Source of the DNA: Eubacteriales bacterium | GTDB lineage: Bacteria; Bacillota; Clostridia; Oscillospirales; CAG-272 | Assembly: GCA_045545665.1 (NCBI GenBank) | Contig: JAZQBL010000037.1 | Location: 6,389 to 70,388 of the forward strand | DNA length: 64,000 nt | Reading direction: 5' to 3' | Shown: positions 2,697-62,904 of the stretch, one piece after another | Numbering within the stretch: position 1 is the first letter of the stretch | Layout of the letters: every line of letters begins with the position of its first letter | The notes under the pieces: model-generated | Told to the model about the DNA's origin: nothing | Seen by the model: only the letters and a program-made list of their open reading frames with translations | The model's database searches: none | Position numbers and translations under genes: made by a program

Positions 2697-2710
2697 GAAG
2701 GGATACGACA

Positions 2711-9623: not shown

Positions 9624-9677
9624 TATAAAAAGGCAGGGAAAAGATAATTCACTGTCTTTTCATTTGAATTTTCTTTT

Positions 9678-10874: not shown

Positions 10875-10921
10875 AATAATTCTTTTTTACAGGGTTATTT
10901 GCATTTATTTGCGGGCTTTTA

Positions 10922-33543: not shown

Positions 33544-33625
33544 AAAAATATCCTTTCTTTTAATACCAATAAAGCAGCCGAACAACGTATGCGTCCGACT
33601 GCTTTACAAAACTATTTATCCTTAA

Positions 33626-47343: not shown

Positions 47344-47355
47344 TTTCCGATATAC

Positions 47356-47384
47356 ATCATATCACGAAGTATTGTTTTTGTCAA
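47356..47384 (-). promoter_or_regulatory. Promoter of the PadR operon
   Basis: On the minus strand: TTGACA (47379-47384), 17-nt spacer, TATGAT (47356-47361). Confidence 0.55.
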
Positions 47385-47394
47385 TAGATATTCC

Positions 47395-47433
47395 AAAAAA
47401 ACAGGCAGTTCTTACTTTTAAGTAAAAACTGCC
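47395..47433 (-). terminator. Terminator of the glycosyltransferase gene
   Basis: Long hairpin GGCAGTT...AACTGCC followed on the minus strand by TTTTTTT. Confidence 0.65.
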
Positions 47434-47443
47434 GTTTCGCATA

Positions 47444-48442
47444 CTATTTTTTTGTATTCCAATCGGGATTCAATTTTTTATATATCGCTTCTCCGTACGG
47501 AATATGAAGACGGAACAGAATATGCATCAAATATTCATTAAAGCAATATTTTCCGCAAATCATATATTTGAACCATTTTTTATTATAGAGCTTTCTGTAT
47601 TTCAAAAAACATTCTTCAAGTCCGTGTTCTTTTGCAAGGCAGCTGAACAGAACACACTTGTCCATAAATTCTTTAGAATATTTAGTAAGCTGTTTTTTTA
47701 TTTTTCTTTCTTCAAAAAATTCCGCTCTTACATAGCTCACCATAATACGGGCAAAATCTTTTTCGCAAAAATCAGATCTTGTCACGCTTCCTTTTCGCTC
47801 TGTCCAAAAATATAACACCTCGTTTGTTCTTACCCATTTGCCTACTCTTTCCCAAATATACGGCAATATCATAGAGTCTTCTTCGATGTATCCTTCTTTA
47901 AATCTCAAAGAAGTGAATATATTTTTTTTGCAAACACGCATACACGGAGAAATAATACTTACAGAAGATACATATTTATCGTATTCATCCCCACCGTTAC
48001 AGCACATAATGATCTCGTCTGCTTTACAGTCAATTTTTGCAAATGATAATTCTTCATCAGGAGCTACAAAGCGATATTTACACGAAGCGATATCAGCATT
48101 ATTTTCTTCTATAAGACGTATAAGACTTTCATACATTTCAGGATGTATAAAATCGTCGGAATCCAAGAAAGCTATATAGTCAAACTCAATATTATTTTCA
48201 AAAAGATAGTCGAGTCCATAATTCCTTGCCGAAGCCGCCCCACCGTTTTTTTTATGCAAAGCACAAACATTATCATACTTATTTGCATAATCATCACATA
48301 TTTTTCCGCTGTTGTCAGTTGAGCCGTCATCGACAAGCACTGTTATTATACTGTCTGATACAGTTTGTTGAAAGATACTTTTAATACTTTTTTCAACATA
48401 TTCTCCCGTATTATAAACAGGTATTACTACCGCTAACTTCAC
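47444..48442 (-). CDS. Family 2 glycosyltransferase
   Basis: Motifs VVIPVYNTGEYVEKSIKSIFQQT, DDGSTD and LDSDD. The segment is AT-rich. Confidence 0.85.
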   Translation of the reverse strand: MKLAVVIPVYNTGEYVEKSIKSIFQQTVSDSIITVLVDDGSTDNSGKICDDYANKYDNVCALHKKNGGAASARNYGLDYLFENNIEFDYIAFLDSDDFIHPEMYESLIRLIEENNADIASCKYRFVAPDEELSFAKIDCKADEIIMCCNGGDEYDKYVSSVSIISPCMRVCKKNIFTSLRFKEGYIEEDSMILPYIWERVGKWVRTNEVLYFWTERKGSVTRSDFCEKDFARIMVSYVRAEFFEERKIKKQLTKYSKEFMDKCVLFSCLAKEHGLEECFLKYRKLYNKKWFKYMICGKYCFNEYLMHILFRLHIPYGEAIYKKLNPDWNTKK

Positions 48443-48464
48443 TATATTTCTCCGAAACTATATT

Positions 48465-49184
48465 TTATTTCAAAAAACTGTCAATTCTCATATAATCATT
48501 GAACCAAGAGCACCAACGGGTAAGCATTTTTATCTGCGATGAATAAATGTCTGTCATTATATACGTCTTCTCTTTGAGATCATCATCACTTAATTTTTTT
48601 GCATCGTCCGAGTTTATAGCAGTATATCTGATCTTAAAATCTCTGAAATAGTCACCGACAAATCTTCCTGTTGCAAAATGATGGCAATGTCCGGACTCAC
48701 CTTCAACAGAATGTGTGTATATTTCACATTCTTTATTTAAAACATTTCTGATTTTTCTAAATCTTCTCTTTTAAAAAATTTTAGACCACATCCATTCGGA
48801 ATGTTCAAGGTCGGGAAAATTGAATATTACTCCTTCGGTGTTTTGATATTCAAGAGCATTAAAAAATTCTTTTCTTCTTGTTTTCTCTCCGCAATTCGAC
48901 ATACAGATAACGTATGTACCCTCACCCATTACAGAAAAGAAAAACAACGTTTCATCATCCGGGTGTGCACAAACTATAAGTCTTTTGCACTTTGATATTT
49001 TTTCATAATCGGGTGTTTTATCTGTAAAAAAACCTCGAAACCAGGTTGCGAACCTATGTACACGTACCTTCGATCTATATTTGAATTTTTCAAGAAACGC
49101 AAGAATTTTGTAATATGCAGATATTAAAATTTTTTTCAATCGCATTTTAATATTTACCAAAAGCGGTGCCGTATAAAACAGCAC
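48465..49184 (-). pseudogene. PIG-L/LmbE-family deacetylase interrupted by one in-frame TAA (48771-48773)
   Basis: The upstream part carries CAHPDDETLFF. After the TAA, the same frame stays open for 101 more codons (KRRFRKIRNVLNKECEIYTHSVEGESGHCHHFATG...) to a stop at 48465. This stretch includes the His-rich second metal motif. Confidence 0.6.
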
Positions 49185-49196
49185 CGCTTACTTTCA

Positions 49197-50444
49197 TCAG
49201 AATAAGATTATCAAGAATTGTGACACAAGCACGACTGCTATAAGTGCTATCGGGTAGGTTGCCGCATACGCTGCCGCAACGTCCTCTGTTTTTGCAACAC
49301 CGATAAGTGTACCAAGTGCGGGGGTACTCGTCATACCGCCGGTAATCGCACCGAGGTTGTTTAAGAGGCTGAGCTTCAGAACGTACTTTGCAAATATGAA
49401 TCCGATTATCAAAGGAACGATCGTCATGATAATGCCGTATACAAAATACATCGGGTCGAAGTTTGCCACAAAATCAATACCGCCGGGAATACCTGCACCG
49501 ACAAGGAAGAGAACCAAACCGAGCTCACGGAAAAGCTTGAGAGTGTGCGTATCAGGCATAAGATTTACCTTTCCTGCTCTGCCAAAGTGACCGATGATAA
49601 GGGAAACGAGGAGACATCCGCCTGTTGTTGTAAGCGAGAAGCACGTACCGTCAAGACCTTCTGCACTGAGCGGTATTTTTATCTTACCGACAAAAGTACC
49701 GAGAACTGCCGCAAGTGAAAATGCTGCAAAGCCGTGTTCATCAAGATTGAAAAGCTTTCCGGCAAAGCTCTTTTTGCTTGCCGAATCCACCTGAACGAGC
49801 TTTGCACGTTCAGCATCCATATCAGCCTTTGCGAGCTTCGGAACGAGCTGTACAAAAAGTACAACACCGATAACACCGAAGATATATGCAATACCGTGAC
49901 CTACGGAAACAAGAGGTTCGTAGACCTCGGCAACAGTAGCTTTAGCGGCTGAAAATGCGGGAGTTGACGTAAGTGAGCCGGAAAGAAGACCGACTATCAT
50001 CGCAACAAATCCGTCCTGATCGCTGATGCTTGCGCCGTATCCGACGACCTCGCCCATTCCGATACAAGCCGCTGCGGAAGCTCCGCCTGCAACTATTATA
50101 ACAAGCCCAAGAAGAACGTATGACTTAAAATTCTTCTTCATATTTCCGAAGAATTTAGGTCCTGCGATAAAGCCGACAGACGTTACGAAAAGTATAAGTC
50201 CGAGACTCTCTATAACATCGAGCGCTTCAATAAATATTTCACCGTACTTGGCACCCTCGCCAAAGATCGTATCCTTGAATAAAGCACCGAACAAAAGTGC
50301 AATAACAAATACGCCGGCATCACCCAAACAAACGCCTTTTATCGTTATTCTGCCGAGTGCGTAACCGATAAAAAGAACGGCAAACACACAAAACAAAACA
50401 AACGAAACACCTGTAACGGGAATAACTCCGCCAAACAAATTCAT
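49197..50444 (-). CDS. AspT/YidE/YbjL-type transporter (duplicated permease domain), candidate C4-dicarboxylate carrier
   Basis: 415 aa and polytopic, with internally duplicated halves. It is the last gene of the fumarate-reductase cluster. The family call is from memory. Confidence 0.5.
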   Translation of the reverse strand: MNLFGGVIPVTGVSFVLFCVFAVLFIGYALGRITIKGVCLGDAGVFVIALLFGALFKDTIFGEGAKYGEIFIEALDVIESLGLILFVTSVGFIAGPKFFGNMKKNFKSYVLLGLVIIVAGGASAAACIGMGEVVGYGASISDQDGFVAMIVGLLSGSLTSTPAFSAAKATVAEVYEPLVSVGHGIAYIFGVIGVVLFVQLVPKLAKADMDAERAKLVQVDSASKKSFAGKLFNLDEHGFAAFSLAAVLGTFVGKIKIPLSAEGLDGTCFSLTTTGGCLLVSLIIGHFGRAGKVNLMPDTHTLKLFRELGLVLFLVGAGIPGGIDFVANFDPMYFVYGIIMTIVPLIIGFIFAKYVLKLSLLNNLGAITGGMTSTPALGTLIGVAKTEDVAAAYAATYPIALIAVVLVSQFLIILF

Positions 50445-50471
50445 TTCAAAATGACCTCTTTTCCGAATATA

Positions 50472-52067
50472 TTACTTTCTTCTGTAATCCGGCAAAAGCT
50501 TAGGAGATACTGCATTTGTGTCAATACCTGCATCAGCAATTTCCTTTTCAAATTTATCAACGTGGGAAAGTGTAAGCTTGCCGACGTTTACAGTCTTGCA
50601 TTTTGCCGCCGCACTCTTACCTGCACTTCTTCCGAATACGATGATATCGAGAAGTGAGTTACCCATAAGGCGGTTACGTCCGTGGATACCGCCGACAGCT
50701 TCGCCTGCAACAAACAAGTTTTCTACGTTTGTTGTCATACAGTCAGCAGTTATATCAAGACCGCCGTTCTGATAGTGGAGCGTAGGATAAACGAGGATCG
50801 GTTCTTTGCGGATATCTATGCCGTATTTACCGAACATTCTCATCATTGCGGGGATTCTTGCTTCAATAGTTCCCTCTCCGCCTATTTTTTCTATCATAGG
50901 TGTGTCGAGCCAAACGCCGAGGCCGTTACCTGTTTCAACACCGTTTCCTCTGTCGTTACATTCACGAATGATGGATGCGGCTGAAACGTCACGTGTTTCA
51001 AGCGGATGCATAAATGCTTCGCCCTTTGCGTTTATAAGCTTAGCACCGAGTGAACGAACCTTTTCCGTTACAAGAGCGCCGAATATCTGTTCAGGATATG
51101 CCGCACCCGTGGGGTGATACTGAAGCGTATCTGCATAAAGAAGCTTAGCGCCTGCTCTGTAACCGAGCACAAGACCGTCAGCTGTTGCGCCGTAATGGTT
51201 TGACGTGGGGAAGCCCTGATAGTGCATACGTCCTGCGCCGCCTGTTGCGATGATAACAGTCTTTGCCTTTGCTATGAGTATTTCCTGTGTTTCCATATTG
51301 AGAAGCACAGCACCTGCGGCATTGCCGTTTTCATCAAGGATAAGCTCGATAGCGGATGTAAAATCAACTACGGGAATACCTCTGTTGAGAACTTCGTCAC
51401 GGAGTGTGCGCATTATTTCAGCACCGGAGTAGTCCTTTGCCGCATGCATACGCTTACGCGAAGTACCGCCGCCGTGTGTTGTTATCATATTACCGTCAGC
51501 GTCTTTGTCGAATTCAACGCCGAGCTCATTAAGCCACTGAATAGCTTCGGGAGCGTCGCAAACGAGCTTTGAAAGAAGCTCTCTTTTAGCCGCATAGTGA
51601 CCGCCGCCAAAAGCATCTACAAAGTGTATTGCAGGAGAGTCGTTTTCCTTGTCAGCTGCCTGGATACCGCCTTCAGCCATCATTGTGTTGGCGTCACCGA
51701 TACGGAGCTTTGTAACGATCATAACATCAGCACCTGCTTCGTTTGCTTCGATAGCTGCAGATGAACCTGCGCCGCCGCCGCCGATAACAAGCACGTCAAC
51801 GTCATAGTCGGGATTTGAAAGATCAATATCTGCCGACTTGATACGGCTGTGAGCCTGAAGCATCTCTGCAAGCTCCGTAGGAACCTTTTCGCCCTTGTTT
51901 GGACCTATTTTAAGCTGTACAAATTCATTTTCTTTATAGTCGGGGTGGTACGCCTTGAGAAGGTCTTCCTTCTGCTGTGCAGTCATACGTGCAGGTTCAA
52001 GCTTTATATTGGCTTCTCTTGCCGCTTCAACCGCCTTCAAAGATTCTGTAAATTTTTCCGAATACAT
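50472..52067 (-). CDS. Soluble fumarate reductase/succinate dehydrogenase-family flavoprotein (FrdA-like, non-covalent FAD type)
   Basis: FAD fold (DVLVIGGGGAGSSAA), AEGGIQAA, HPT motif (LQYHPTGAA) and GRNRLMGNSLLD. A non-homologous extension of about 95 aa precedes the FAD fold. Confidence 0.75.
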   Translation of the reverse strand: MYSEKFTESLKAVEAAREANIKLEPARMTAQQKEDLLKAYHPDYKENEFVQLKIGPNKGEKVPTELAEMLQAHSRIKSADIDLSNPDYDVDVLVIGGGGAGSSAAIEANEAGADVMIVTKLRIGDANTMMAEGGIQAADKENDSPAIHFVDAFGGGHYAAKRELLSKLVCDAPEAIQWLNELGVEFDKDADGNMITTHGGGTSRKRMHAAKDYSGAEIMRTLRDEVLNRGIPVVDFTSAIELILDENGNAAGAVLLNMETQEILIAKAKTVIIATGGAGRMHYQGFPTSNHYGATADGLVLGYRAGAKLLYADTLQYHPTGAAYPEQIFGALVTEKVRSLGAKLINAKGEAFMHPLETRDVSAASIIRECNDRGNGVETGNGLGVWLDTPMIEKIGGEGTIEARIPAMMRMFGKYGIDIRKEPILVYPTLHYQNGGLDITADCMTTNVENLFVAGEAVGGIHGRNRLMGNSLLDIIVFGRSAGKSAAAKCKTVNVGKLTLSHVDKFEKEIADAGIDTNAVSPKLLPDYRRK

Positions 52068-52079
52068 ATCTGCCCCTCC

Positions 52080-52754
52080 TTATTTCTCTATTTCTCTGTT
52101 GTTGTAAAGCTCTTTTATCTCATCAACGGGTTTTTCCATAAGTGCCTCGATGAGATCCTTGAACGTACCGTCTTTTATTTCTTGTACACGGTTTTCAAGG
52201 TGTGCCGTCTTGGGAGCAAGATACTTACCGTTAAGTCTGCGTGCAAGCATTGCAACCTGAGGATGTGATATACCTGCAGGGCAACGTGAAGAACATACTC
52301 CGCACATTACGCAGTCAAATGACTCCTCTGCACACTTTTCGTATTCGCCTCTCTGAGCGTATGCTATGTACTGCATTACGTTAAGCTCCTGAGTACAGCT
52401 CTTTGTACAAGCGTTACAGCCGATACAAGCATATATTTCAGGATAAAGCTGCATCATTATCTGCTCTGTGGGTCTTACTTTTTCAATATCATATACCTGC
52501 TTTACGAGGGGGAAGAAGGGCAAAGTTGCGATATACATATTGTCCTCAACCTTTGTCTGGCAGGCAAGGCAGGCTTTAAGCTCTCTGTCGCCTTTTATTC
52601 TGTACACCGTAGCGCAAGCGCCGCAGAAGCCGTTACGGCATCCGCAACCGCGTACAAGCTGATAGCCTGCGTATTCCATTGCGCTCATTATGGTGAGATT
52701 TTCGGGAACACTGTATTTTTTTCCGAAAAGAAATATATTAACCATGTTTTCCAT
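52080..52754 (-). CDS. FrdB/SdhB-like iron-sulfur subunit (2Fe-2S plus two 4Fe-4S-type motifs)
   Basis: Motifs CRNGFCGACA, CIGCNACTKSC and CVMCGVCSSRCP. AGGAGG lies 9 nt before the ATG at 52754. Confidence 0.7.
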   Translation of the reverse strand: MENMVNIFLFGKKYSVPENLTIMSAMEYAGYQLVRGCGCRNGFCGACATVYRIKGDRELKACLACQTKVEDNMYIATLPFFPLVKQVYDIEKVRPTEQIMMQLYPEIYACIGCNACTKSCTQELNVMQYIAYAQRGEYEKCAEESFDCVMCGVCSSRCPAGISHPQVAMLARRLNGKYLAPKTAHLENRVQEIKDGTFKDLIEALMEKPVDEIKELYNNREIEK

Positions 52755-52770
52755 TTCGATTATCCTCCTA

Positions 52771-53610
52771 TTAATACTCGCTGGGTAACAATTCAAGCTC
52801 ATCACAGCGGAATACGGGTCCGTCTTTACATACGTATTTTGAACCGATATTACATCTTCCGCACTTACCGATACCGCACTTCATACGAAGCTCCATCGTC
52901 GTATATACCTGAGTTTTATCGTATCCCAGTGACATAAGCCCTTCCAACGTGAACTTTATCATTATGGGAGGACCGCATATGATAACGGTTTTATTTGTAT
53001 CAAAGTTAAGCTCTTTTACGTAGTTGGGAACGAATCCTACGTGGCCGTCCCAGCCTTCCTGCTCACGGTCTATGGTAAGATGAACGTTGATACCGTCTTC
53101 TTTCATCCATTCGTCGATGATCTCGGCATAGTCAACGAGGTCGTCCTTGCTTCTTGAGCCGTAAACGATGTCGATCTTACCGTATTTATCTCTGTAATGA
53201 CGGCAGTAGTTGATAACCGAGCGAAGCGGTGCAAGACCGATACCGCCGGCAACGAACAGCAGATCTTTTCCTTCAAACACTTCCTTTACGGGGAAGGGCT
53301 TGCCGTAAGGTCCTCTTATCGTTATCTGCTGACCGACCTGTGCCTGGTGAAGCCACTCTGTCACACAACCGCATTTTTTAATGGAAAATTCCATATATTC
53401 CGTGTTTGTGGGAGACGAAGTTATTGAAAACATCGCTTCACCGACAGCGGGGATCGAAAGCATAGCGCACTGACCGGGCATATGGTCGAATGCTTTTTTT
53501 CCGTCGGGAGTTACGACACGGAACGTCTTGACGTCGGGTGTGTCGATCCTTATATCGGTGATAACGCCGACCTTGGGTATAAGTGATTCTTCTCTTTTAT
53601 TCATCATCAT
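52771..53610 (-). CDS. FAD/NAD(P)H-binding oxidoreductase with C-terminal 2Fe-2S (FlxA / HydG / AsrB / PyrK-like)
   Basis: Motifs FSITSSP, LLFVAGGIGLAPLRS, and the C-terminal cluster MKCGIGKCGRCN...C. Confidence 0.75.
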   Translation of the reverse strand: MMMNKREESLIPKVGVITDIRIDTPDVKTFRVVTPDGKKAFDHMPGQCAMLSIPAVGEAMFSITSSPTNTEYMEFSIKKCGCVTEWLHQAQVGQQITIRGPYGKPFPVKEVFEGKDLLFVAGGIGLAPLRSVINYCRHYRDKYGKIDIVYGSRSKDDLVDYAEIIDEWMKEDGINVHLTIDREQEGWDGHVGFVPNYVKELNFDTNKTVIICGPPIMIKFTLEGLMSLGYDKTQVYTTMELRMKCGIGKCGRCNIGSKYVCKDGPVFRCDELELLPSEY

Positions 53611-54622
53611 TACCTCCCAACGCTTTCATAACTTTTACTATATTCATAGATATAGGGCATTTTGCAAGGCATCTGCCGCAACCGACGCAACCGAACACAC
53701 CGTCGTTATTCGTGGGATAGTACACGAGTTTGTGCATAAATCTCTGACGGAAGCGTTCAAGCTGTGAAAGTCTGTTGTTTCCGTGTGCCATTCTCGTAAA
53801 TTCGGAATACATGCACGAATCCCAGCAACGGAAACGGATAACACCGTGTCCTGTGTCGTAGTCCTTTATGTCATAGCACTGACACGTCGGGCAAACGTAC
53901 GTACACGTACCGCATCCGAGGCAGGAGGATGAAAGCTCGCGCCACTCGGGTGCATCGAAAAACTCTGATGTTTTATCTTTTCCGAATTTATCGGTCTTGA
54001 GGTCTGCAAGCGGAAGCTTTTTCATTATTTCTCTTGTCTTGTTCTGCTGTTCTGTAACCTTTGCGTCGTCGCAGTCAGAAACAAGTGCTCCGAGCTTTGA
54101 CAAAAGTGCTTCGCCTTTTTCTGTATTTGCCTTGAAATACATCTCGTCGTCCGTTTTCCAGCACGTGATATCACCTGCAGGCGATGCTGCATCTATTCCG
54201 AATGCTGTGCAGAAGCACGTTTCTTTCGGTCTTGTGCAAGCCATTGATATTATCGTTGCGTGCTCGCGTCTGTTTGCATAGTAGCTGTCACAGGGCTCGG
54301 AAATGAATACTTTATCAAGTATATCAAAGCTCTTTACGTCACACGCTCTGACGCCGAAGATAACGAAATCTTCTTTTTCATCTCTTGTGTCGATAACTTC
54401 GATCTCTTTACCGGAAACCTTAAATTCCATAAGGTTTTCAGTCTGAGGAAAGAAGAAATCCTTTGCGCTTCTTACTGTATTGAGTTCATCGCTGAGAGCA
54501 ATTCCCTCTTCCCATTTCTTATATACAGCGCCCGCATTCGTATCTGTGGGAATATAAAGCGCGGATTCCTTTGCAATAGCGGCAAATACCGCATCAAGCG
54601 TATTCAATGAACATTTACGCAT
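53597..54622 (-). CDS. 4Fe-4S dicluster protein (FlxB / HydB / AsrA-like)
   Basis: Motifs CLGCGTCTYVCPTCQC and CVGCGRCLAKCP. 341 aa. It overlaps the next gene by 14 nt. Confidence 0.65.
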   Translation of the reverse strand: MRKCSLNTLDAVFAAIAKESALYIPTDTNAGAVYKKWEEGIALSDELNTVRSAKDFFFPQTENLMEFKVSGKEIEVIDTRDEKEDFVIFGVRACDVKSFDILDKVFISEPCDSYYANRREHATIISMACTRPKETCFCTAFGIDAASPAGDITCWKTDDEMYFKANTEKGEALLSKLGALVSDCDDAKVTEQQNKTREIMKKLPLADLKTDKFGKDKTSEFFDAPEWRELSSSCLGCGTCTYVCPTCQCYDIKDYDTGHGVIRFRCWDSCMYSEFTRMAHGNNRLSQLERFRQRFMHKLVYYPTNNDGVFGCVGCGRCLAKCPISMNIVKVMKALGGNDDE

Positions 54623-54624
54623 CT

Positions 54625-55611
54625 TTATTCCCCTTTCTTTACAGCGTCGTTGGGTTCGATATCTTCCGTTGTATAGTTGACAAGAGGCGCGCGGCTTCCT
54701 TCAACTTCGCCTGCCTGATATTCGCCGTAGAAGCTGTTTATATCTTTTATGAATTTTCTGTTCAGCAAGTGGAGGGGTATGTTCTGAGGACATACTCTTG
54801 AGCACTCACCGCAGTCCGTACATCTTCCCGCAACGTGGAAAGCACGGATGATATGGAACATTTTTTCTTCAAAGCTGTCTGCTATTGCCTTATTTTCAAC
54901 ACCCGATTTAGGGTTATCGAATACGCACTTTTCGCACGTACATGCAGGACATACGTCACGGCAGGCATTGCATCTTATACAGCGTGAAAGCTCGTTCTGC
55001 CAGAAAGCAAATCTTTCGTCTTCTGTCATATTTTCAAGCTTCTCGACTTCGTCAAAGCGGTTACTGTCGAGAACGTCACCGTCTTCACCGATAAGCTCGT
55101 CGTACGCGGTGTGCTTTTTACTCTTACAGTTTACACAGCGTTCAGCCATAACGTCGGCTACGGCAATTTTCTTAACGTCGCCGTATATCGTTTCAACGCT
55201 GAGGTCTTCGCCGTCTGACGTTATTTTCGATATAGCATCGGGAACTGCACAATTTACCTTTTCAATATCTGCCATACCGTCGCAAGGTATGCCGACAGCG
55301 TACACCTTTTCTCTGTTGAAGCGGTGTTCTGTCAGAAGCTGATTAAAGCTGTACGTGTCGCAGGGCTTCAGAAATACGAGAACCTTGCCGTCGCTCTTTT
55401 TCGTTTCTTTTACAAGATATTTTGAGAAGTTTGCACCCGAAAAATCATTGTATACGAAATTTTTCTTTACTTCGTCCGCATTTGCGAATACTGCGGGGGA
55501 AAGGTCGTAATCAAATTCACCCTTTTTCCAACCCATAACACGGTCAACTGTTCCGTTTTCAAGCAGTTCGCAAGCCTTTGCGATCAGCGATTCACACGTT
55601 ATTTTTTGCAT
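54625..55611 (-). CDS. Fe-S protein with FrhB-like N-terminal region and 4Fe-4S motifs (FlxC-like)
   Basis: Motifs CIRCNACRDVCPACTCEKC and CTDCGECSRVCP. The ATG at 55611 (MQKITCE...) is preferred over the track start. Confidence 0.6.
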   Translation of the reverse strand: MQKITCESLIAKACELLENGTVDRVMGWKKGEFDYDLSPAVFANADEVKKNFVYNDFSGANFSKYLVKETKKSDGKVLVFLKPCDTYSFNQLLTEHRFNREKVYAVGIPCDGMADIEKVNCAVPDAISKITSDGEDLSVETIYGDVKKIAVADVMAERCVNCKSKKHTAYDELIGEDGDVLDSNRFDEVEKLENMTEDERFAFWQNELSRCIRCNACRDVCPACTCEKCVFDNPKSGVENKAIADSFEEKMFHIIRAFHVAGRCTDCGECSRVCPQNIPLHLLNRKFIKDINSFYGEYQAGEVEGSRAPLVNYTTEDIEPNDAVKKGE

Positions 55612-56036
55612 CGTAAATCCTCCAATCTCTTGTTTTCTCCAAGTTTGGAAACGGCTTCTGTAAAGTCGTTCATCGTCTGAGCAAACTTTGCACCTTCGGC
55701 AGCGGATACCCATTCAAGACGGATACGCTCTTTTTCGATACCGAGGTAGTTGAGCATAGAGAACAGCAGTGCCATTCTTCTTCTCGTATAGTAGTTACCC
55801 GACGTATAGTGACAGTCACCGGGGTGGCATCCGCAGATTATAACACCGTCAGCGCCTCTCTGGAATGCACGGAGGATAAATATAGGATTGACTCTGCACG
55901 AGCAGGGTACTCTTATAATATTTACACATTCGGGATACGCAAGTCTGTTGTTTCCCGCAAGGTCTGCACCCGCATATGAGCACCAGTTACAGCAGAATGC
56001 AACGATCTTCGGTTTAAATTCGTTATTTATTTGCAT
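55599..56036 (-). CDS. mvhD: MvhD/FlpD-like hydrogenase iron-sulfur subunit (FlxD-like)
   Basis: Motifs IVAFCCNWCSYAGADLAG, RVPCSCRVNP and ICGCHPGDCHY. The ATG at 56036 overlaps the hdrA stop by 10 nt. Confidence 0.8.
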   Translation of the reverse strand: MQINNEFKPKIVAFCCNWCSYAGADLAGNNRLAYPECVNIIRVPCSCRVNPIFILRAFQRGADGVIICGCHPGDCHYTSGNYYTRRRMALLFSMLNYLGIEKERIRLEWVSAAEGAKFAQTMNDFTEAVSKLGENKRLEDLRCKK

Positions 56037-58021
56037 ATTGCATCTACCTCCGCTATAATTTGTGAGCTTGCAAAGCCCTTGAGGTCCATAGCACCGGAAG
56101 GACAAGCAACCGTACATGCACCGCAACCCTGACATACAGCCTCGTTTACAGTTGCAACACGTCTTATCGCAACAGTTCTGTCGGGCATACGGAATTCTTT
56201 ATCAACGTAAGTGATAGCACCGTAAGGACATACTCTTTCACAAGAAGAACAGCCGTTACACATAAGCTCGTTGGAGTTTGCAACGCAGGGGTTGCCCATG
56301 AGCTTATCCTTAGCAAGAAGTCCTATTACCTTTGCTGCCGCCGCACTTGCCTGTGATACCGTTTCGGGGATATCCTTCGGACCCTGGCACGTACCTGAAA
56401 GGAATACGCCTGCCGTCGGGCTTTCAACGGGACGGAGCTTGGGATGCGCTTCCGTGAAGAAGTCGTTTGTATCCATACTTGCCGTAAGCATCGTAGCCAA
56501 AGGACGTGCGGACTTATCGGGTTCGATAGCCGCCGCAAGGACAACGAGGTCAGCGGCAATATTGAGCTGTTTGTTTGCAAGAAGGTCTGATGCTCTTACC
56601 ATAAGCTTATCACCCTCGGGCGATACCTTACCGACCATACCCTTTATGTAGTGTACGCCGTATTCTTCAACCGCTCTGCGGTAGAATTCATCAAACGCCT
56701 TACCGGGTGTACGTACGTCGATGTAGAATACGTAAACGTCCGTATCCGGATATTTATCTCTTGTAAGCATTGCATGCTTTGCCGTATACATACAGCAGAT
56801 CTTCGAGCAGTATTCCTTACCCTTTTCAGCGCAAGCCGAGCATCTTGAGCCGACACACTGCACGAACACTATCGTGTGGGGATGCTTGCCGTCGGAAGGA
56901 CGGAGAAGCTTACCTGCCGTAGGTCCTGCGGCATTCGTGAGACGCTCAAATTCAAGAGACGTGATAACGTCCTTTGACTGATTGTAAGCAAACTCGTCAA
57001 ACTTATCCATGCTGATGGGATTGAAGCCCGTAGCGGCAACGATAGCACCGTACTTTTCTTCGATGATCTCATCCTTTTGCGTGTAGTCTATAGCGCCCGC
57101 CGTACATACCTTTGAGCATATACCGCACTTGCCTGTTTTGAGCATCGTACAGTAGTTGGGGTCGATAGTTGCAACCTTCGGAACTGCCTGAGCAAACGGA
57201 ATATATACCGCACGGCGGTTATCCATACCCATATTGAATTCGTTGGGTACCTTCTTCTGAGGACACTTTTCAGTACAGATACCGCAGCCTGTACAGATAT
57301 CCTCTTTTACGTATCTTGCTTTCTTTCTTATTTTTACATTAAAGTTACCGACGAAGCCGCCTATTTCTTCTACCTCGCTGTAGGAGAAAATTCTGATGTT
57401 TTCATTCTGGGCTACGTCAACCATTTTAGGCGTAAGGATACAAGCAGCACAGTCAAGCGTCGGGAACGTCTTGTCGAGCTGAGCCATTTTACCGCCTATG
57501 GTGGGTTTCTTTTCAACTATATCAACGGGGAAGCCTGCTTCTGCGATATCAAGAGCAGTCTGTATACCTGCAATACCGCCGCCTATTACGAGCGCACGTT
57601 TTGTAACGGGGCTTTCACCGGGAGTAAGCGGAGCATTGAGGTTTACCTTTGCAATAGCCGCCTTTCCCAAAATAATAGCCTTTTCCGTACCGGACTTCAT
57701 ATCCTTATGTACCCAGGAGCACTGCTCACGGATATTGGCTATTTCGACCATATACGAGTTAAGTCCTGCGGCCGCCGCTGTCTTGCGGAAGGTCGCTTCG
57801 TGCATTCTCGGCGAGCATGAGCAGACGACGATTCCCGTCAGTTTATGTTCTGCTATTGCATTTTTGATTATATCCTGACCTGCCTGTGAGCACATATACT
57901 GATAGTTTGTGGAAAAGACAACGCCGGGTTCGTTCTTAAGAGCTTCGGAAACAGCCTCAACATCTACTGTTCCTGCGATGTTACTGCCGCACCAGCATAC
58001 AAATACACCAATTCTCTGCAT
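56027..58021 (-). CDS. hdrA: HdrA-like FAD- and Fe-S-containing heterodisulfide reductase subunit A
   Basis: The N-terminus is IGVFVCWCGSNIAG and the FAD fold is ALVIGGGIAGIQTALDIAEAG. Ferredoxin motifs are CTGCGICTEKCP, CNGCSSCERVCP and CQGCGACTVACP. 664 aa. Confidence 0.85.
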   Translation of the reverse strand: MQRIGVFVCWCGSNIAGTVDVEAVSEALKNEPGVVFSTNYQYMCSQAGQDIIKNAIAEHKLTGIVVCSCSPRMHEATFRKTAAAAGLNSYMVEIANIREQCSWVHKDMKSGTEKAIILGKAAIAKVNLNAPLTPGESPVTKRALVIGGGIAGIQTALDIAEAGFPVDIVEKKPTIGGKMAQLDKTFPTLDCAACILTPKMVDVAQNENIRIFSYSEVEEIGGFVGNFNVKIRKKARYVKEDICTGCGICTEKCPQKKVPNEFNMGMDNRRAVYIPFAQAVPKVATIDPNYCTMLKTGKCGICSKVCTAGAIDYTQKDEIIEEKYGAIVAATGFNPISMDKFDEFAYNQSKDVITSLEFERLTNAAGPTAGKLLRPSDGKHPHTIVFVQCVGSRCSACAEKGKEYCSKICCMYTAKHAMLTRDKYPDTDVYVFYIDVRTPGKAFDEFYRRAVEEYGVHYIKGMVGKVSPEGDKLMVRASDLLANKQLNIAADLVVLAAAIEPDKSARPLATMLTASMDTNDFFTEAHPKLRPVESPTAGVFLSGTCQGPKDIPETVSQASAAAAKVIGLLAKDKLMGNPCVANSNELMCNGCSSCERVCPYGAITYVDKEFRMPDRTVAIRRVATVNEAVCQGCGACTVACPSGAMDLKGFASSQIIAEVDAICK

Positions 58022-58033
58022 TTCTTCTCCTCC

Positions 58034-58432
58034 TTACTTACTGTATTTACGAAGTGCGCTCACGATCGCCTGCTGAGGAAGCTCCTCATCAAGAAGCGCA
58101 GGTATATCGTCAGCTTTAAGATGGTTTGCGCCCTGCTTTCTGATAACGGAAAGGCGCACTGCTTCAACGAGCTTTGCAGGTTCAACACCTCTGGGGCATC
58201 TGTCAACGCACGCAAAGCACGTCAGACACTTATAAAGTGACTTTGAATTCATAAGCGGTTCGATATCGCCGCTTTCGACCATATAAACGAACTGATGCGG
58301 ATGGTACTCCATCTCATCAAACGCAGGGCACGTGCCCGTGCATTTTCCGCAACGCATACATTTTTTCGGATTGACACCGCTGGAGCGGATTATTTCCGCT
58401 TGGAGTCTTTCTGTTTCTTTACTCATTGCCAT
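58034..58432 (-). CDS. hdrC: HdrC-like 4Fe-4S dicluster subunit
   Basis: Motifs CMRCGKCTGTCP and CLTCFACVDRCP. 132 aa. Confidence 0.8.
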   Translation of the reverse strand: MAMSKETERLQAEIIRSSGVNPKKCMRCGKCTGTCPAFDEMEYHPHQFVYMVESGDIEPLMNSKSLYKCLTCFACVDRCPRGVEPAKLVEAVRLSVIRKQGANHLKADDIPALLDEELPQQAIVSALRKYSK

Positions 58433-59213
58433 CCTCCTTTACACCGAGAGCTTCAGCCAAAAGCTCTGTAAAGTACACTATTTTAGCCGTGGGATTGTTC
58501 TTTTCAAGATTGTATTTGCAAAGCGGACAAGCCGTTACTATTATATCTGCGCCGTGTGCGTTTGCATTGTCTACGACAGCCGTGCTCTTTTTCTTTGCGG
58601 AAAGTGCATCCTCAAGAGCTATATATCCGCCGCAGCATTCGTTTCTGTAGGGGAAAACGACAGCTTCGGCGCCGAGTGCCTTTATAAGATCCTCCATAAT
58701 GGTGGGATTCTCGGGATCGTCCATCTGCATTACGCTGTTGGGACGGAGCAAAAGGCATCCGTAATATGCGGCTATCTTCTTACCTTTAAGCGGATTTACT
58801 ACCTTTTCGGCTACCTTATCGAAGCCGACCTCATCTCTGAGGTATTCAAGATAATGAAGTACTTTTGTTTTTCCGTCGTATCCGCCATCGGCACCGAGAT
58901 AATTATTTACGTGCGATGCAAATTCTTCATCTGTCTGCATTGCGTGGTTGGTCTGCTTTATAACGTTGTGGCAAGCGGAACATACGGTTACGAGAATCTG
59001 ATCTTTTTTCTGAGCTTCGGCAAGCGCTCTTACAGAGGAAAGCTTTGTTGCTATCTCGTTACGCGCCGTCGTGAAAACGCCGCCGCAGCACTGCCAATTT
59101 TCTATTTCTTCAAGAGAAAAGCCGAGTGCCTGTGCACTTTTTCTTGCATATTCGTCCAGATCCTTTGCCTTTGTCTTTAACGTACAACCGGGAAAGTATG
59201 CTACTTTTTCCAT
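58419..59213 (-). CDS. hdrB: HdrB-like subunit with two CCG domains
   Basis: The first CCG domain is YFPGC...QCCGG...CSAC and the second is YYGC...ECCGG...CPLC. 264 aa. Confidence 0.85.
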   Translation of the reverse strand: MEKVAYFPGCTLKTKAKDLDEYARKSAQALGFSLEEIENWQCCGGVFTTARNEIATKLSSVRALAEAQKKDQILVTVCSACHNVIKQTNHAMQTDEEFASHVNNYLGADGGYDGKTKVLHYLEYLRDEVGFDKVAEKVVNPLKGKKIAAYYGCLLLRPNSVMQMDDPENPTIMEDLIKALGAEAVVFPYRNECCGGYIALEDALSAKKKSTAVVDNANAHGADIIVTACPLCKYNLEKNNPTAKIVYFTELLAEALGVKEDGNE

Positions 59214-59235
59214 TTATATGACCGTTCCTTTCTTA

Positions 59236-59288
59236 GGGCTTTCGTGGAGTTGCGGATTTCCGAAAACTCGAAAATCCGCAAACAGCCC
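59236..59288 (-). other. Intercistronic stem-loop between fumC and hdrB
   Basis: The inner stem is perfect (TGCGGATTT / AAATCCGCA, 9 bp) and the outer stem is GGGCT / AGCCC. No T-run follows on the transcribed strand. Confidence 0.4.
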
Positions 59289-59303
59289 GGAAATTTATTT
59301 TAA

Positions 59304-60680
59304 TCAAACCATCTGTTCGGGATGGAAAACCTCGTCGAATTTTTCTTCCGTCAGGAAGCCGAGTGCAACGCACGCTTCCTTGAGTGAAATGTTATCTTTA
59401 AATGCTTTTTTTGCAGTCTTTGCCGCATTTTCATAACCTATATAGGGGTTGAGAGCCGTAACGAGCATAAGGGAGTTATGCAGGTTGTGGTGCATCTTTT
59501 CTTTATTTGCAACTATTCCGACAGCGCAGTTCTTGTTGAAGGAAACTATCGCTTCCGCCATAAGTCTTGCAGACTGTAAGAAATTATATGCACACACGGG
59601 CATAAATACGTTAAGCTCGAAGTTGCCCTGTGATGCCGCCATACCGACTGCAACGTCGTTACCCATTACCTGAACGGCAACCATTGTAACGGCTTCACAC
59701 TGTGTGGGATTTACCTTACCGGGCATTATGGACGAGCCGGGCTCGTTTTCGGGTATGAATATTTCACCAAGACCGTCACGGGGTCCGCTTGCGAGCCAGC
59801 GTACGTCGTTTGCTATCTTCATCATATCGCAAGCAAGCGCCTTGATAGCACCGTGTGCAAATACCATTTCATCCTTAGACGTAAGCGAATGGAACTTGTT
59901 TGCGGCAGTTACAAAGGGCTTACCTGTGAGATTTGCCACTTTTTCCGCAACAAGCTCACCGAATCCCTTGGGTGCATTAAGTCCCGTACCTACGGCAGTA
60001 CCGCCGAGTGCAAGCTCGCACAAAGGCTTTACTGCAAGCTTTATAAGCTCTACGTCTCTTTCAAGGCTTGAACGCCAGCCGCTTATTTCCTGGCTGAACT
60101 TGATGGGAGTTGCATCCTGAAGGTGCGTTCTTCCGCTTTTAACGATTCCCTCGTTTTCTTCTTCAAGTCTTTTGAACGTTGCAATAAGAGTTTCAACTGC
60201 GGGAATGAGCTTATCTTCAAGCATCATAACAGCCGCGATGTGCATTGCCGTCGGGAACGTATCGTTTGACGACTGGCTCATATTTACGTCATCGTTGGGA
60301 TGAAGTATCTTTTCGCCTGCGAGCTGATTTCCTCTGTTTGCAATAACCTCGTTTGCGTTCATGTTGGACTGTGTGCCCGAACCTGTCTGCCAAACGACCA
60401 ACGGGAAATTATCGTTAAGCTTTCCTGCGATTATTTCATCGCATGCACCGCTTATCGCTTCAAGCTTCTGTGCTGTCATTTTTTCGGGACGGAGAGCGCA
60501 GTTTGCCTGAGCCGCCGCCTTTTTCAGTATACCGAAAGCGTACGTGATCTCTCTCGGCATCGTTTCGATATTTACACCTATTTCAAAATTTTCATGGCTT
60601 CTCTGAGTCTGTGCAGCCCACAGCTTATCTGCAGGGACCTTTACTTCGCCCATAGAGTCATGCTCTATACGGTAATCCAT
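59304..60680 (-). CDS. fumC: Class II fumarate hydratase
   Basis: Motifs [38 protein letters not shown] and others. The ATG at 60680 has GGAGAG 7 nt upstream. Confidence 0.92.
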
Positions 60681-60695
60681 AATTTCACTCTCCAA

Positions 60696-61655
60696 TTATA
60701 TCGTTGTTGCTTTAATTATTGCTTTAAGCGTATCTGCGCTGTGGCGGAGCTTTGCAATTTCCTCATCATTCAAAGGAAGATGTACTTTACTGCGTACGCC
60801 GTTATTGCCGACGATGCTGAGCGTACTGAGACAAACGTCGTCGATTCCGTATTCGCCGTGCATCATCGTGGATACTGTCATCGTCGTATCCATACCGCTG
60901 AGCAGGCACTTGCATATATAGCATACAGCCGTTGATACAGCGTAGAACGTAGCGCCCTTGCGTGCGATTATCTCACCGCCGGACTTCTGTACGTATCTCA
61001 AAGCTTCATCGTAATCAAATTTAGGAAGGCTCTCGCCGTTTTTACCCGTAAACGAATTGTGGCAGTCCGCGATATTTACGTTTGATACGTTGGCAAGCGA
61101 CCACGGGATGAAGGAAGAGTCCCCATGCTCACCGAGCACGTATGCGTGTGCGTTATTCTGGCTTATCGAGTAAAACTCCGACATCTTTGCACGAAGACGT
61201 GCCGTGTCAAGTATAGTGCCCGAACCGATTATACGGCTTTCGGGAATACCCGAACGCTTACAGAATGCATATGTAAGGATATCAACGGGGTTACTTACGA
61301 GAAGATACACGGCATCGGGTGCGGCGTGTGTTATCTGCGTCATTATCTGCTTAAGTATGTCAATGTTCGTCTGTGCAAGTTCAAGACGTGACTGACCTGC
61401 TTTTCTCGCAACGCCCGACGTAATGATAACTATGTCGGAATTAGCGGCATCAGCATATGAGCCTGCATTGACTGTACAGGGGTTGCAGAACGGCAAAGCC
61501 TGTCTGATATCAAGCGCCTCGCCTATCGCTTTCTCGTTGTTGATGTCGATCATTACGATCTCAGAAGTAAAGCCCATAACAGCAAGTGTGTAGGAAATAG
61601 TAGCTCCTACGCTTCCGCTTCCGATGATTGTGATTTTGTTCATAATTATTTTCAT
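60696..61655 (-). CDS. mdh: LDH-like malate dehydrogenase
   Basis: Rossmann fold (ITIIGSGSVGATISY). The substrate loop GVARKAGQSRLEL has Arg where L-lactate dehydrogenases have Gln (ANQKPGETR). The start is either 61655 or the ATG at 61643. Confidence 0.75.
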   Translation of the reverse strand: MKIIMNKITIIGSGSVGATISYTLAVMGFTSEIVMIDINNEKAIGEALDIRQALPFCNPCTVNAGSYADAANSDIVIITSGVARKAGQSRLELAQTNIDILKQIMTQITHAAPDAVYLLVSNPVDILTYAFCKRSGIPESRIIGSGTILDTARLRAKMSEFYSISQNNAHAYVLGEHGDSSFIPWSLANVSNVNIADCHNSFTGKNGESLPKFDYDEALRYVQKSGGEIIARKGATFYAVSTAVCYICKCLLSGMDTTMTVSTMMHGEYGIDDVCLSTLSIVGNNGVRSKVHLPLNDEEIAKLRHSADTLKAIIKATTI

Positions 61656-61905
61656 CCCTTCTACGCTTATCGCGTTTTATGTGGTTTATTAACAGTATTA
61701 CCGTAGTGCGGAAGAATTTCTTCCGTACTCTTCAAACAGTTCGGAAAAGCAATAATTTTTCCGCATACCTATTCCTTATAATTATAATACATCGTTAAGA
61801 TTTTTTCAAGTGTTTTGATAAAAAAACTGAAAATATCTTACACATACTGTCATTTATCTGCTTTTTTCTTTTTTTATCGCCGTTTATTTGTTTAAAATAC
61901 CCAAC

Positions 61906-61940
61906 AAAAAAGCCCGTGACATGACTTTATCAGCACGAGC
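61906..61940 (-). terminator. Terminator of the DUF11-like gene
   Basis: Hairpin GCTCGTG...CACGGGC with one mismatch, followed on the minus strand by TTTTTT. Confidence 0.5.
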
Positions 61941-61962: not shown

Positions 61963-62817
61963 TCAGATAGTTCCCGTTATAATAAGCGTTGCAACGCCGG
62001 GTGTCGTAACGACAGCACCCGTTTGGGCATCTCTTTCAAACGTTGCCGCAGGTACTGTTATCTGACCGGGGACGGTCGTGAATACTCCCGTTGTTTCGTC
62101 GTAGTTATAATTGACCCCTTCGGTCCACACGTTTCCGTCAAACGTCACGGATATATCGGACAGCACGGGTGAAAACGTATCGGTGATAGTGGCGTTATCG
62201 GTTGAAACAACAGCTGTATTTCCGTAGTTCTGTATGAGCATTCTGTAAGTTACCGTACCGTTTTCAACAACGGGAATAGGTTCAATGCTCTTCGTAACGG
62301 TAAGATCGGCTTCTTCCGAAGGCGATACCGTTTCCGATACCGTTATCGGTGTCTGTATTCCCGCGCCGTCAACCGTTGCCGTGTTGACGATAGTATCACC
62401 GACACCGAGAGGCGCAAATCCGTTTGCTTCCGCCTCATATATAAGTATCACGTTTCCGCCTGCGGGAACTGTGATACCGCTGAAAACAAGCGGCTGTGTT
62501 GACGTTGCCGCGGGAGGTGACTGCAAAACTCCGTTTACGTAAAATCTTACCGATCCGTCAACGTACGTAAGCGGATAAAAAGTTTCCGTATCTACCGTAT
62601 ACGCACCGAGGTCGTCACTTACCGTGATACCCGTAAACGGTGTATTCCCCGTATTTACCACACTTACGACGTACGTGATATCGTCGCCTGCCGAATATTC
62701 CGTGGTAACGGCAGTTTTCGTTGCAGAGAGCACTTCGAGTATCTCTCCGACTGCAACGTTTGAGCTTACGACCAGCCCGTTATACGTGAGCTGGGCGCGG
62801 TTTGTAAATTGTGCCAT
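61963..62817 (-). CDS. DUF11-type repeat protein (two Ig-like repeats), no signal peptide or anchor
   Basis: MAQFTNRAQLTYNG... Two TxT/VxN-rich repeat domains (DITYVVSVVNTGNTPFTGITVSDDLG and TVTYRMLIQNYGNTAVVSTDNATITDTF). AGGAGA lies 4 nt before the ATG at 62817. Confidence 0.6.
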   Translation of the reverse strand: MAQFTNRAQLTYNGLVVSSNVAVGEILEVLSATKTAVTTEYSAGDDITYVVSVVNTGNTPFTGITVSDDLGAYTVDTETFYPLTYVDGSVRFYVNGVLQSPPAATSTQPLVFSGITVPAGGNVILIYEAEANGFAPLGVGDTIVNTATVDGAGIQTPITVSETVSPSEEADLTVTKSIEPIPVVENGTVTYRMLIQNYGNTAVVSTDNATITDTFSPVLSDISVTFDGNVWTEGVNYNYDETTGVFTTVPGQITVPAATFERDAQTGAVVTTPGVATLIITGTI

Positions 62818-62904
62818 ATATTCTCCTTTTGTACAGTTATTATTCGGGTTTGCACCCACTTAAATAATATGCAAAAGGAGAGATATGTGTGACGAAAAAT
62901 GTCG

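Follow-up and report, generated by a model that had tools for sequence, protein, structure and literature searches.

The closest described counterpart of the gene cluster considered here is the "succinate operon" of Pseudoclostridium thermosuccinogenes, in which genes for a fumarate hydratase, seven Flx-Hdr subunits, two fumarate reductase subunits and a putative succinate transporter lie together (Koendjbiharie et al., PMC7282089; Preprints 2019, doi 10.20944/preprints201912.0288.v1). The 11 genes of this operon were co-regulated (PMC7282089), and NADH-dependent fumarate reduction coupled to the reduction of ferredoxin was hypothesised for the organism (PMC7282089 and its reference 15). Earlier physiological work had found that high H2 abolishes succinate formation (PMC7282089), a loss that would follow if the reduction of fumarate also had to unload electrons onto ferredoxin. 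The present analysis concerns a twelve-gene cluster of the same kind on contig JAZQBL010000037.1 of a Eubacteriales bacterium (assembly GCA_045545665.1), within a stretch of 64,000 nucleotides (nt) that is called the window and to whose positions coordinates refer throughout; the operon genes lie on its minus strand. We read the cluster, with slightly better than even confidence, as the reductive four-carbon (C4) branch of a fermentation, in which a quinone-free fumarate reductase (FrdBA) would be fed by the Flx-Hdr module with bifurcation of electrons to ferredoxin. When compared by the published locus-tag description, gene content and order match those of the P. thermosuccinogenes operon. 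The window adds, as first gene, a predicted malate dehydrogenase (MDH) of the lactate dehydrogenase (LDH) family that carries Arg102, and its lineage is one of uncultured mesophilic gut or rumen Clostridia. The enzyme is said to have been first proposed in a 2019 preprint. Neither the architecture nor the bifurcation hypothesis is new to the literature, and the window holds a member of a proposed, biochemically uncharacterised kind.

Flx-Hdr genes accompany a soluble Tfr-like fumarate reductase also in tubeworm symbionts and in Thioflavicoccus mobilis, where flxABCD-hdrABC is interspersed with tfrAB and korABCD and where a complex shuttling electrons directly to fumarate reductase was proposed (PMC6315080). 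Co-expression of the transcripts of the symbiont clusters was reported later (PMC11636981). Loci combining Hdr, FrdBA and kor genes were likewise found among the relatives surveyed here. The symbiont clusters belong to Gammaproteobacteria and to autotrophic CO2 fixation by the reductive tricarboxylic acid cycle, with 2-oxoglutarate:ferredoxin oxidoreductase and ATP citrate lyase, whereas the window has no kor genes and would serve fermentative succinate formation. FlxABCD-HdrABC of Desulfovibrio vulgaris takes part in ethanol metabolism, and its high-potential acceptor was proposed to be the disulfide of DsrC (Ramos et al. 2015, as relayed in PMC7282089 and PMC6315080). All seven subunit types of that system are encoded in the window, which differs by its two extra fumarate-reducing genes and by the order hdrBCA-flxDCBA. 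In a 2024 preprint, HdrA and SdhA of Ruminococcus champanellensis are noted, as an aside, to be linked in STRING.

Twelve co-directional open reading frames (ORFs) on the minus strand fill positions 49197-61655, in the order mdh, fumC, hdrB, hdrC, hdrA, mvhD, flxC, flxB, flxA, frdB, frdA and AAE-type transporter. Gene identities were obtained from Pfam and NCBIfam profile searches, and all twelve parts were identified and are intact, as judged from the sequence. The genes and the elements that surround them are as follows (RBS, ribosome-binding site):

61781-61809, minus strand: promoter-like TTGAAA-17-TATAAT (11/12 consensus matches)
61656-61780, minus strand: 5' leader with hairpins including CGGAAAA..TTTTCCG and CGGAAGAAATTCTTCCG (RNA fold -29.1 kcal/mol, z-score -2.63)
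60696-61655, minus strand: mdh, LDH-family dehydrogenase, predicted malate dehydrogenase (Ldh_1_N 6.8e-40, Ldh_1_C; start codon at 61655 or 61643)
59304-60680, minus strand: fumC, class II fumarate hydratase (TIGR00979 704 bits against a cut-off of 664.75; Lyase_1, FumaraseC_C; ATG at 60680 with RBS)
59214-59303, minus strand: fumC-hdrB spacer of 90 nt, with a 14-base-pair (bp) stem-loop without U-tail (fold -28.2 kcal/mol, z-score -3.45)
58419-59213, minus strand: HdrB-like protein with two CCG domains (PF02754 twice, 4.3e-23)
58034-58426, minus strand: HdrC-like protein with two [4Fe-4S] clusters (Fer4_17, Fer4_8; TIGR03290 5.4e-18; two CxxCxxCxxxCP motifs in the translation)
56027-58021, minus strand: HdrA-like flavoprotein with inserted and C-terminal ferredoxin domains (NF040770, HdrA2, 782 bits, model positions 1-641; Pyr_redox_2, several Fer4)
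55599-56036, minus strand: MvhD/FlxD, 2Fe-2S (PF02662 FlpD 1.2e-55; HdrA2 model positions 643-774; ATG at 56036 with RBS)
54625-55611, minus strand: FlxC-like iron-sulfur protein (Fer4_8 7.3e-9, weak AsrA match; ATG at 55611 with RBS)
53597-54622, minus strand: FlxB-like iron-sulfur protein of the sulfhydrogenase beta/AsrA type (Fer4_22 2.3e-29; ShyB 177 and AsrA 137 bits, both under cut-off)
52771-53610, minus strand: FlxA-like NAD(P)H/FAD/2Fe-2S subunit of the PyrK/HydG/AsrB type (FAD_binding_6, NAD_binding_1, DHODB_Fe-S_bind; PRK08345 229.9 bits)
52080-52754, minus strand: FrdB-like protein, one [2Fe-2S] motif, two [4Fe-4S] motifs, CCG domain absent (Fer2_4, Fer2_3, Fer4 dicluster)
50472-52067, minus strand: FrdA-like flavoprotein (FAD_binding_2, PF00890, 1.3e-68)
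49197-50444, minus strand: AAE-family (Asp-Al_Ex) transporter, putative succinate exporter (PF06826 twice, 5.1e-55; TIGR01625 127.6 bits against 71.95)
49159-49189, minus strand: terminator-like GC-rich hairpin AAGCGGTGC..GCACCGCTT followed by TTTT, read from the sequence directly after the transporter stop codon

With RBS-supported starts, neighbouring genes overlap by up to 14 nt or are separated by up to 27 nt, the 90-nt spacer between fumC and hdrB being the sole exception. A preliminary description made from the letters of the window had already reported twelve packed genes with this single larger gap, and this description holds with the revised starts. The genes that it listed were confirmed; its gene limits needed correction for mvhD, flxC, frdB and fumC, of which the RBS-supported starts lie downstream of the longest-ORF starts. 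In the two genomes closest to the window, L002 and L004, the promoter-like motif recurs at the aligned position. Nucleotide similarity to the nearest genomes (85.7% and 80.7%) ends at the borders of the cluster, which therefore behaves as a discrete unit. The twelve genes are thus predicted to form one operon, running from the promoter-like site to the terminator-like hairpin.

All seven Flx-Hdr subunit types are encoded adjacently, with the expected domains. The cofactor motifs that had been noticed as intact in HdrB, HdrC, HdrA and MvhD were borne out by the translations and the profile matches, among them CCNWC, CSC and CGCHPGDC in MvhD. The ten CCG cysteines of HdrB were all invariant in 93/93 FrdBA-linked homologues. 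The PyrK/HydG-type protein and the two polyferredoxin-like proteins of the preliminary description correspond to FlxA, FlxB and FlxC, respectively. As in the methanogen electron-bifurcating heterodisulfide reductases MvhAGD-HdrABC and HdrA2B2C2 (PMC5296606), HdrB and HdrC are complete, and HdrA (782 bits) and MvhD (176 bits) jointly cover the fused HdrA2 model from end to end. HdrA, HdrB and HdrC all scored under the methanogen equivalog cut-offs. The electron donor also differs from that of the methanogens, since the Flx NAD(P)H module takes the place of hydrogenase or F420H2, and the presumed high-potential acceptor is fumarate, reached through FrdBA, and not CoM-S-S-CoB. The best NCBIfam matches of HdrB were SdhE (152.9 bits) and HdrB (146.9 bits), both under cut-off. 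SdhE is the CCG subunit that feeds SdhB/SdhA in SdhABE (type E, or methylmenaquinol:fumarate reductase), and it provides a precedent for a CCG protein adjoining the iron-sulfur subunit of a fumarate reductase. The resemblance is limited, the SdhE cut-off being 500 bits; SdhABE is moreover quinol-linked and membrane-associated, and its SdhA has a C-terminal domain.

The FrdB-like protein has two Cx2Cx2Cx3C motifs beside its 2Fe-2S domain, and its twelve cluster cysteines were invariant among 8 diverse homologues. A profile search of the PDB returned generic ferredoxin matches and weak SdhB/FrdB matches. The N-terminus of FrdB matched only positions 17-94 of the TfrB model, the remainder of which was matched piecewise by HdrC (133-220) and HdrB (262-466), so that FrdB, HdrC and HdrB together resemble a split TfrB. 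For the FrdA-like protein, no curated cut-off was reached and TfrA was the best-scoring curated family (NF004900, 342.5 bits against 718), followed by SdhA/FrdA (TIGR01812, 277 against 567) and NadB (TIGR00551, 266 against 452). The pair is comparable in several respects to the thiol:fumarate reductase TfrAB of Methanothermobacter, a soluble enzyme that uses no quinone. It departs from TfrAB in that FrdA scores under the cut-off and has no match to the final ~120 positions of the TfrA model, and in that FrdB has no fused CCG part, which is found in the separate HdrB; the TfrAB donors, coenzyme M (CoM-SH) and coenzyme B (CoB-SH), are not expected in Clostridia. The cluster contains no gene for a membrane anchor, as the preliminary description had already stated of what it called a soluble FrdA/FrdB-like pair. 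Hydrogenobacter thermophilus reportedly possesses a soluble five-subunit NADH-dependent fumarate reductase that is quinone-independent (ascribed to Miura et al., 2008), and this enzyme is said to have a different, smaller subunit set without the complete Flx-Hdr module.

The curated models cover the FrdA-like protein only to about position 420 of 546-568, and the C-terminal helical domain Succ_DH_flav_C (PF02910) was not found in it by the Pfam search. A family-specific N-terminal extension of ~88 residues is present, and the histidine that binds FAD covalently is replaced by Asn ('GDANT' in the FrdA-like protein, 'TRSHT' in SdhA). Six residues, H318, E335, R338, R359, H431 and R466, were invariant in 11 diverse members of the FrdA family, down to 39% identity, and, aligned to PDB sequences, they fall on their SdhA counterparts. 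By the E. coli enzymes, their roles would be those of the His of HPTG, the Thr/Glu hinge, the proton-donor Arg, the second His and the second Arg. The AlphaFold2 model (predicted local distance difference test, pLDDT, 89; predicted template-modelling score, pTM, 0.90) had as its top Foldseek match E. coli FrdA (1kf6_A, E = 1e-32, TM-score 0.70), followed by SdhA and flavocytochrome c3.

The window also holds the gene of a genuine NadB (2711-3988, 558.9 bits against a cut-off of 472), between nadA and nadC. The FrdA-like protein is 30% identical to this NadB and has Gly where NadB has a Glu, presumably the NadB-specific E121 of E. coli. An assignment of the FrdA-like protein as L-aspartate oxidase was thus rejected, as nadA-nadB-nadC is present at 1767-4832 and the NadB-type Glu is missing from the FrdA-like protein. 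The invariant fumarate residues, the fold and the contrast with NadB indicate a fumarate-type enzyme that is not the aspartate oxidase of this genome, and its active site is of the fumarate type. The expectation that the protein would group with fumarate enzymes is thereby supported by the order of scores (TfrA, then SdhA/FrdA), by the FrdA fold and by the catalytic residues. As for the nadA-nadB-nadC genes themselves (plus strand), their NadB is short (425 amino acids, aa), and they adjoin a CitMHS-family transporter gene (419-1594, minus strand).

The first gene was called mdh in the preliminary description, a name that the profile scores did not support by themselves. Its product is above the NCBIfam cut-offs for L-LDH (NF000824, 344.7 against 339; TIGR01771, 314.2 against 303.55) and under that for MDH (NF004863, 272.9 bits against 283), and its closest solved structures are all L-LDHs. 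In the alignment to these structures, Arg replaces Gln102 of LDH ('SGVARKAGQSR' against 'AGAAQKPGETR'), and this Arg was present in 48/48 cluster-linked orthologues. Position 102 is reportedly the substrate-discriminating residue of LDH, the subject of a Gln102Arg experiment attributed to Wilks et al. in 1988. From Arg102 and this work, specificity for oxaloacetate is predicted, and the gene is assigned as a malate dehydrogenase on the strength of the residue; the name mdh is kept in that sense. The protein looks like a naturally occurring version of the classic switch from LDH to MDH made by engineering, and automatic annotation would probably mislabel it as LDH. At the other end of the operon, the transporter missed the full-length AAE equivalogs, its 415 aa facing models of 553-562 positions. 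Its gene was found in about half of the related clusters. Succinate would be its cargo.

These neighbours bear on a further explanation, according to which the substrate of the FrdA-like protein is another enoate or aspartate, or the system works backwards and oxidises succinate, mdh and fumC being neighbours by coincidence. We consider it highly improbable. The failure of the protein to reach any of the TfrA, SdhA/FrdA and NadB cut-offs and its missing C-terminal domain are in its favour, and relatives in the superfamily include urocanate reductase and other reductases. It is opposed by the invariance of all residues that bind and protonate fumarate, by the Gly in place of the NadB-specific Glu together with the genuine NadB at 2711-3988, and by the co-occurrence of the FrdA family with two unrelated fumarase classes, the Arg102 dehydrogenase and a dicarboxylate-type exporter. 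As calculated, the oxidation of succinate to yield NADH with ferredoxin as co-donor would also be endergonic under standard conditions.

In species-representative genomes, the scan for FrdA relatives gave at least 591 stretches that encode one, of which the best 80 were examined as loci. They are 74-95% identical and come almost all from uncultured gut or rumen Clostridia; the cultured Yeguia hominis NSJ-40 and a metagenome-assembled genome labelled Ruminococcus flavefaciens are among them. Over 81 loci (the 80 genome loci and L001), all twelve genes were found in 28, including Yeguia hominis NSJ-40 (L051), the transporter alone was missing in 19, mdh was missing in five and fumC in two. The segment hdrBCA-mvhD-flxCBA-frdBA was retained in every untruncated locus of the 81 except one, and HdrA was 73-98% identical across the conserved Flx-Hdr-FrdBA loci. 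The linkage between Hdr/Flx and FrdBA is conserved.

More distant FrdA relatives were gathered by a cluster-representative search, contig look-ups and a metagenome scan, giving 166 loci in total. Flx, Hdr and FrdBA occur together in 89/166 of them, a count that, like the other architecture counts, is not an unbiased frequency, because the best 80 lists hold the closest matches. A second architecture, Hdr-MvhD and FrdBA without FlxA, was found at 13 loci with permuted gene orders (L082, L087-L089, L091, L092, L095, L100, L103, L107, L108, L110 and L114, environmental contigs, 52-58% identical). At six of these (L082, L088, L089, L091, L095 and L107), genes for a four-subunit 2-oxoacid:ferredoxin oxidoreductase of the korDABG type adjoin. 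L091 encodes, in addition, a carbonic anhydrase and a double HdrA-like protein of 1005 aa. The gene linkage claimed for the window is in this way recovered in relatives, both as the full set and as an older Hdr-FrdBA association. A natural FrdB-FrdA fusion of 727 residues was found as well (L086, 5250-7433), and two unrelated fumarase classes adjoin FrdBA, class II in the window and class I in L101. The conserved order, the fusion and the two fumarase classes agree with the earlier suggestion that a fumarate-reducing module is genetically tied to Flx-Hdr and to the enzymes that form fumarate.

We propose the following route for the electrons and the carbon. Oxaloacetate would be reduced to malate by the LDH-scaffold malate dehydrogenase, malate would be dehydrated to fumarate by FumC, fumarate would be reduced to succinate by the soluble, quinone-independent FrdBA, and succinate would leave through the AAE-family transporter. 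As FrdBA itself lacks a site for NAD(P)H, the electrons should come through the iron-sulfur clusters of FlxABCD-HdrABC. In this model, FlxA would oxidise NAD(P)H, and the electrons would pass by FlxB, FlxC and MvhD to the flavin of HdrA. There the pair would be split. One electron would go downhill along HdrC, HdrB, FrdB and the FrdA flavin to fumarate, whereas the other would be driven uphill to ferredoxin by way of the HdrA ferredoxin domains. Overall, the reaction would be 2 NADH + fumarate + oxidised ferredoxin -> 2 NAD+ + succinate + reduced ferredoxin. Physical association of the Flx-Hdr and FrdBA subunits, passage of the electrons through HdrB, NADH and not NADPH as the donor, and ferredoxin as the second acceptor are all parts that we infer. 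The piecewise TfrB match offers a precedent for a path from CCG clusters through a dicluster domain and 2Fe-2S to FAD, and in distant relatives Hdr-MvhD stays beside FrdBA despite the permuted order and the absence of Flx.

Calculated from textbook potentials, the transfer from NADH to fumarate yields about -67 kJ per electron pair and that from NADH to ferredoxin costs about +19 to +35 kJ; the former outweighs the latter, so that the net bifurcating reaction would be exergonic. A complete HdrA with both ferredoxin domains is kept in this system although a single NuoF-like subunit suffices elsewhere, and bifurcation is the explanation that we offer for this. A bolder form of the proposal, which we hold tentatively and at somewhat less than an even chance, is that FlxABCD, HdrABC and FrdBA assemble as one soluble complex of nine subunits, which would represent a new class of flavin-based bifurcating enzyme with fumarate as the high-potential acceptor. 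HdrB, with its non-cubane clusters, would then be a relay to FrdB and not a disulfide reductase, quinone-free gut and rumen Clostridia (among them the cultured Yeguia hominis and the genome labelled Ruminococcus flavefaciens) would conserve energy via the reduced ferredoxin, and FrdBA would be a plug-in module for at least four electron-input modules.

Several observations weigh against such coupling. At least six loci have FrdBA alone. FrdBA stands without a partner nearby in L085, L101, L113 and L122, so that the catalytic pair can do without Hdr; in L101, genes for the alpha and beta subunits of a class I fumarase lie directly upstream of the stand-alone frdBA (7845-11629). In L050 (Congzhengia), the frdBA genes are 82% identical to those of the window and have a CitMHS transporter gene (8079-9179) directly upstream, with no Hdr or Flx nearby. 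In a fourth architecture (L083/L084, 9366-12891), frdB-frdA is followed by a gene for a NuoF-like NADH-binding subunit. Biochemical evidence for bifurcation or for the complex was not found in the full-text literature, a search that left most subscription journals outside and is not proof of absence. To our knowledge, FlxABCD-HdrABC has never been demonstrated to bifurcate in vitro. Lastly, the disulfide-reductase-type site of HdrB is complete, which could mean a thiol/disulfide intermediate instead of direct wiring. The occurrence of FrdBA without Hdr/Flx in close relatives implies that the coupling is not obligatory for the FrdA family. In our reading the link between Hdr and FrdBA is old and recurrent without being obligatory, and FrdBA looks like a soluble fumarate reductase module for which the electron input can be exchanged.

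Two details of these variants may be added. The automatic class of L050 was 'Flx seen'; as the locus contains pyrB (aspartate carbamoyltransferase), the FlxA-like match is most likely a PyrK-type paralogue, and the locus was treated as FrdBA alone. The genome with the frdB-frdA-NuoF-like variant also encodes c-type cytochromes.

The three-gene variant with the NuoF-like subunit is one argument for a simpler scheme, namely a non-bifurcating NAD(P)H:fumarate reductase. Here Flx, Hdr and FrdBA would again form one complex, but Hdr would be a mere wire between FlxA and FrdA; ferredoxin would not be reduced, and no additional energy would be conserved. Members of the family can evidently be fed by a plain NADH-oxidising subunit in L083/L084, the transfer from NADH to fumarate is strongly exergonic by itself, and profile annotation of the twelve genes of the operon found no ferredoxin gene among them. 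We nevertheless regard the scheme as unlikely. The seven extra subunits are strongly conserved in 89 loci, including the full HdrA with both ferredoxin domains, which is hard to explain for a wire, and the physiology of P. thermosuccinogenes (PMC7282089) fits ferredoxin coupling better.

The complete site of HdrB can also be accommodated by two separate enzymes joined by a thiol/disulfide carrier. Flx-Hdr would use NADH to reduce ferredoxin together with a disulfide at HdrB, whether of a small thiol or of a protein like DsrC, and FrdBA, perhaps with HdrB, would re-oxidise the thiol in the manner of the archaeal thiol:fumarate reductase. The curated families nearest to FrdA and to the FrdB N-terminus, TfrA and TfrB respectively, are consistent with such a carrier, as is the retention of all ten CCG cysteines in HdrB, and thiols or a DsrC-like carrier are listed as an option in published proposals (PMC7282089, PMC11636981). 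Since FrdB has no CCG domain, however, FrdBA alone has no known thiol-oxidising site, and no candidate for a carrier or thiol-synthesis gene appeared in the profile annotation of the twelve genes of the operon. The stand-alone and NuoF-paired forms of FrdBA argue for protein-to-protein transfer through the clusters. CoM and CoB are also not to be expected in Clostridia. We judge the carrier scheme to be quite improbable, and retain bifurcation with direct transfer from HdrB to FrdB as the proposed mechanism.

The control regions of the operon show little that is common to the relatives. The hairpins of the 5' leader are built on CGGAA...TTCCG repeats, which are not conserved. A conserved operator was rejected for these palindromes, as the motifs are missing from 46 related upstream regions and the promoter alone is common with L002 and L004. 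In the more distant L028, L039 and L051, a different inverted repeat, TATATCGATAAAT(A/G)CAATACCGATATG, lies upstream of mdh just past the -10 box; it may be a regulator site or a 5' stabilising hairpin, either being possible. A riboswitch or other known RNA in the leader or in the spacer was ruled out, since the Rfam scan of the window gave three tRNAs only and no family in either segment. The hairpin of the fumC-hdrB spacer is kept in L002 and L004 with a different sequence, and most relatives have a short spacer (median ~22 nt). It was rejected as a terminator because it has no U-tail and the genes downstream are conserved as one unit. The stem-loop may be an element of mRNA processing or stability that divides mdh-fumC from the redox genes.

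At the 3' border, the hairpin at 49159-49189 was not flagged by the consensus terminator scan because its T-run has only four T. A 137-aa ORF (48771-49184) was considered and rejected as a thirteenth gene of the operon: its longest form overlaps the terminator hairpin, the GC content falls, and similarity to the relatives stops at 49193-49197. The region 46000-49190, directly downstream of the operon, has a GC content of 0.37-0.39 and is not common to the closest genomes. It is probably a variable region for surface polysaccharides and encodes a GT2 glycosyltransferase (47444-48442) and, in the same 48771-49184 ORF, a short PIG-L-like sequence (E = 8e-4). Upstream of the operon, the gene at 61963-62859 (minus strand) encodes a DUF11/DUF7507 repeat protein, probably located at the cell surface, and has its own terminator-like hairpin at ~61905-61940.

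Elsewhere in the window, the minus strand encodes a 925-aa GH127 beta-L-arabinofuranosidase with CBM35 and CBM6 modules (5940-8717), a SipL-domain sporulation protein (18423-19964), by which a spore-former is implied, a large serine recombinase with Resolvase, Recombinase and Zn_ribbon_recom domains (22528-23946), and a 654-aa ORF with no Pfam match (31621-33585).

To the published proposals, the present analysis adds the breadth of the cluster in gut and rumen Clostridia, four variants of electron input, the FrdB-FrdA fusion, the two fumarase classes, the Arg102 dehydrogenase on an LDH scaffold and a cultured strain. This strain, Yeguia hominis NSJ-40 (L051), makes the hypothesis directly testable. 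If the bifurcation is true, fumarate would join the short list of high-potential acceptors that drive the reduction of ferredoxin from NADH, and this would account for the energy gained from succinate formation in bacteria without quinones or cytochromes. The cluster may thus matter for the flows of succinate and hydrogen in gut and rumen fermentation.

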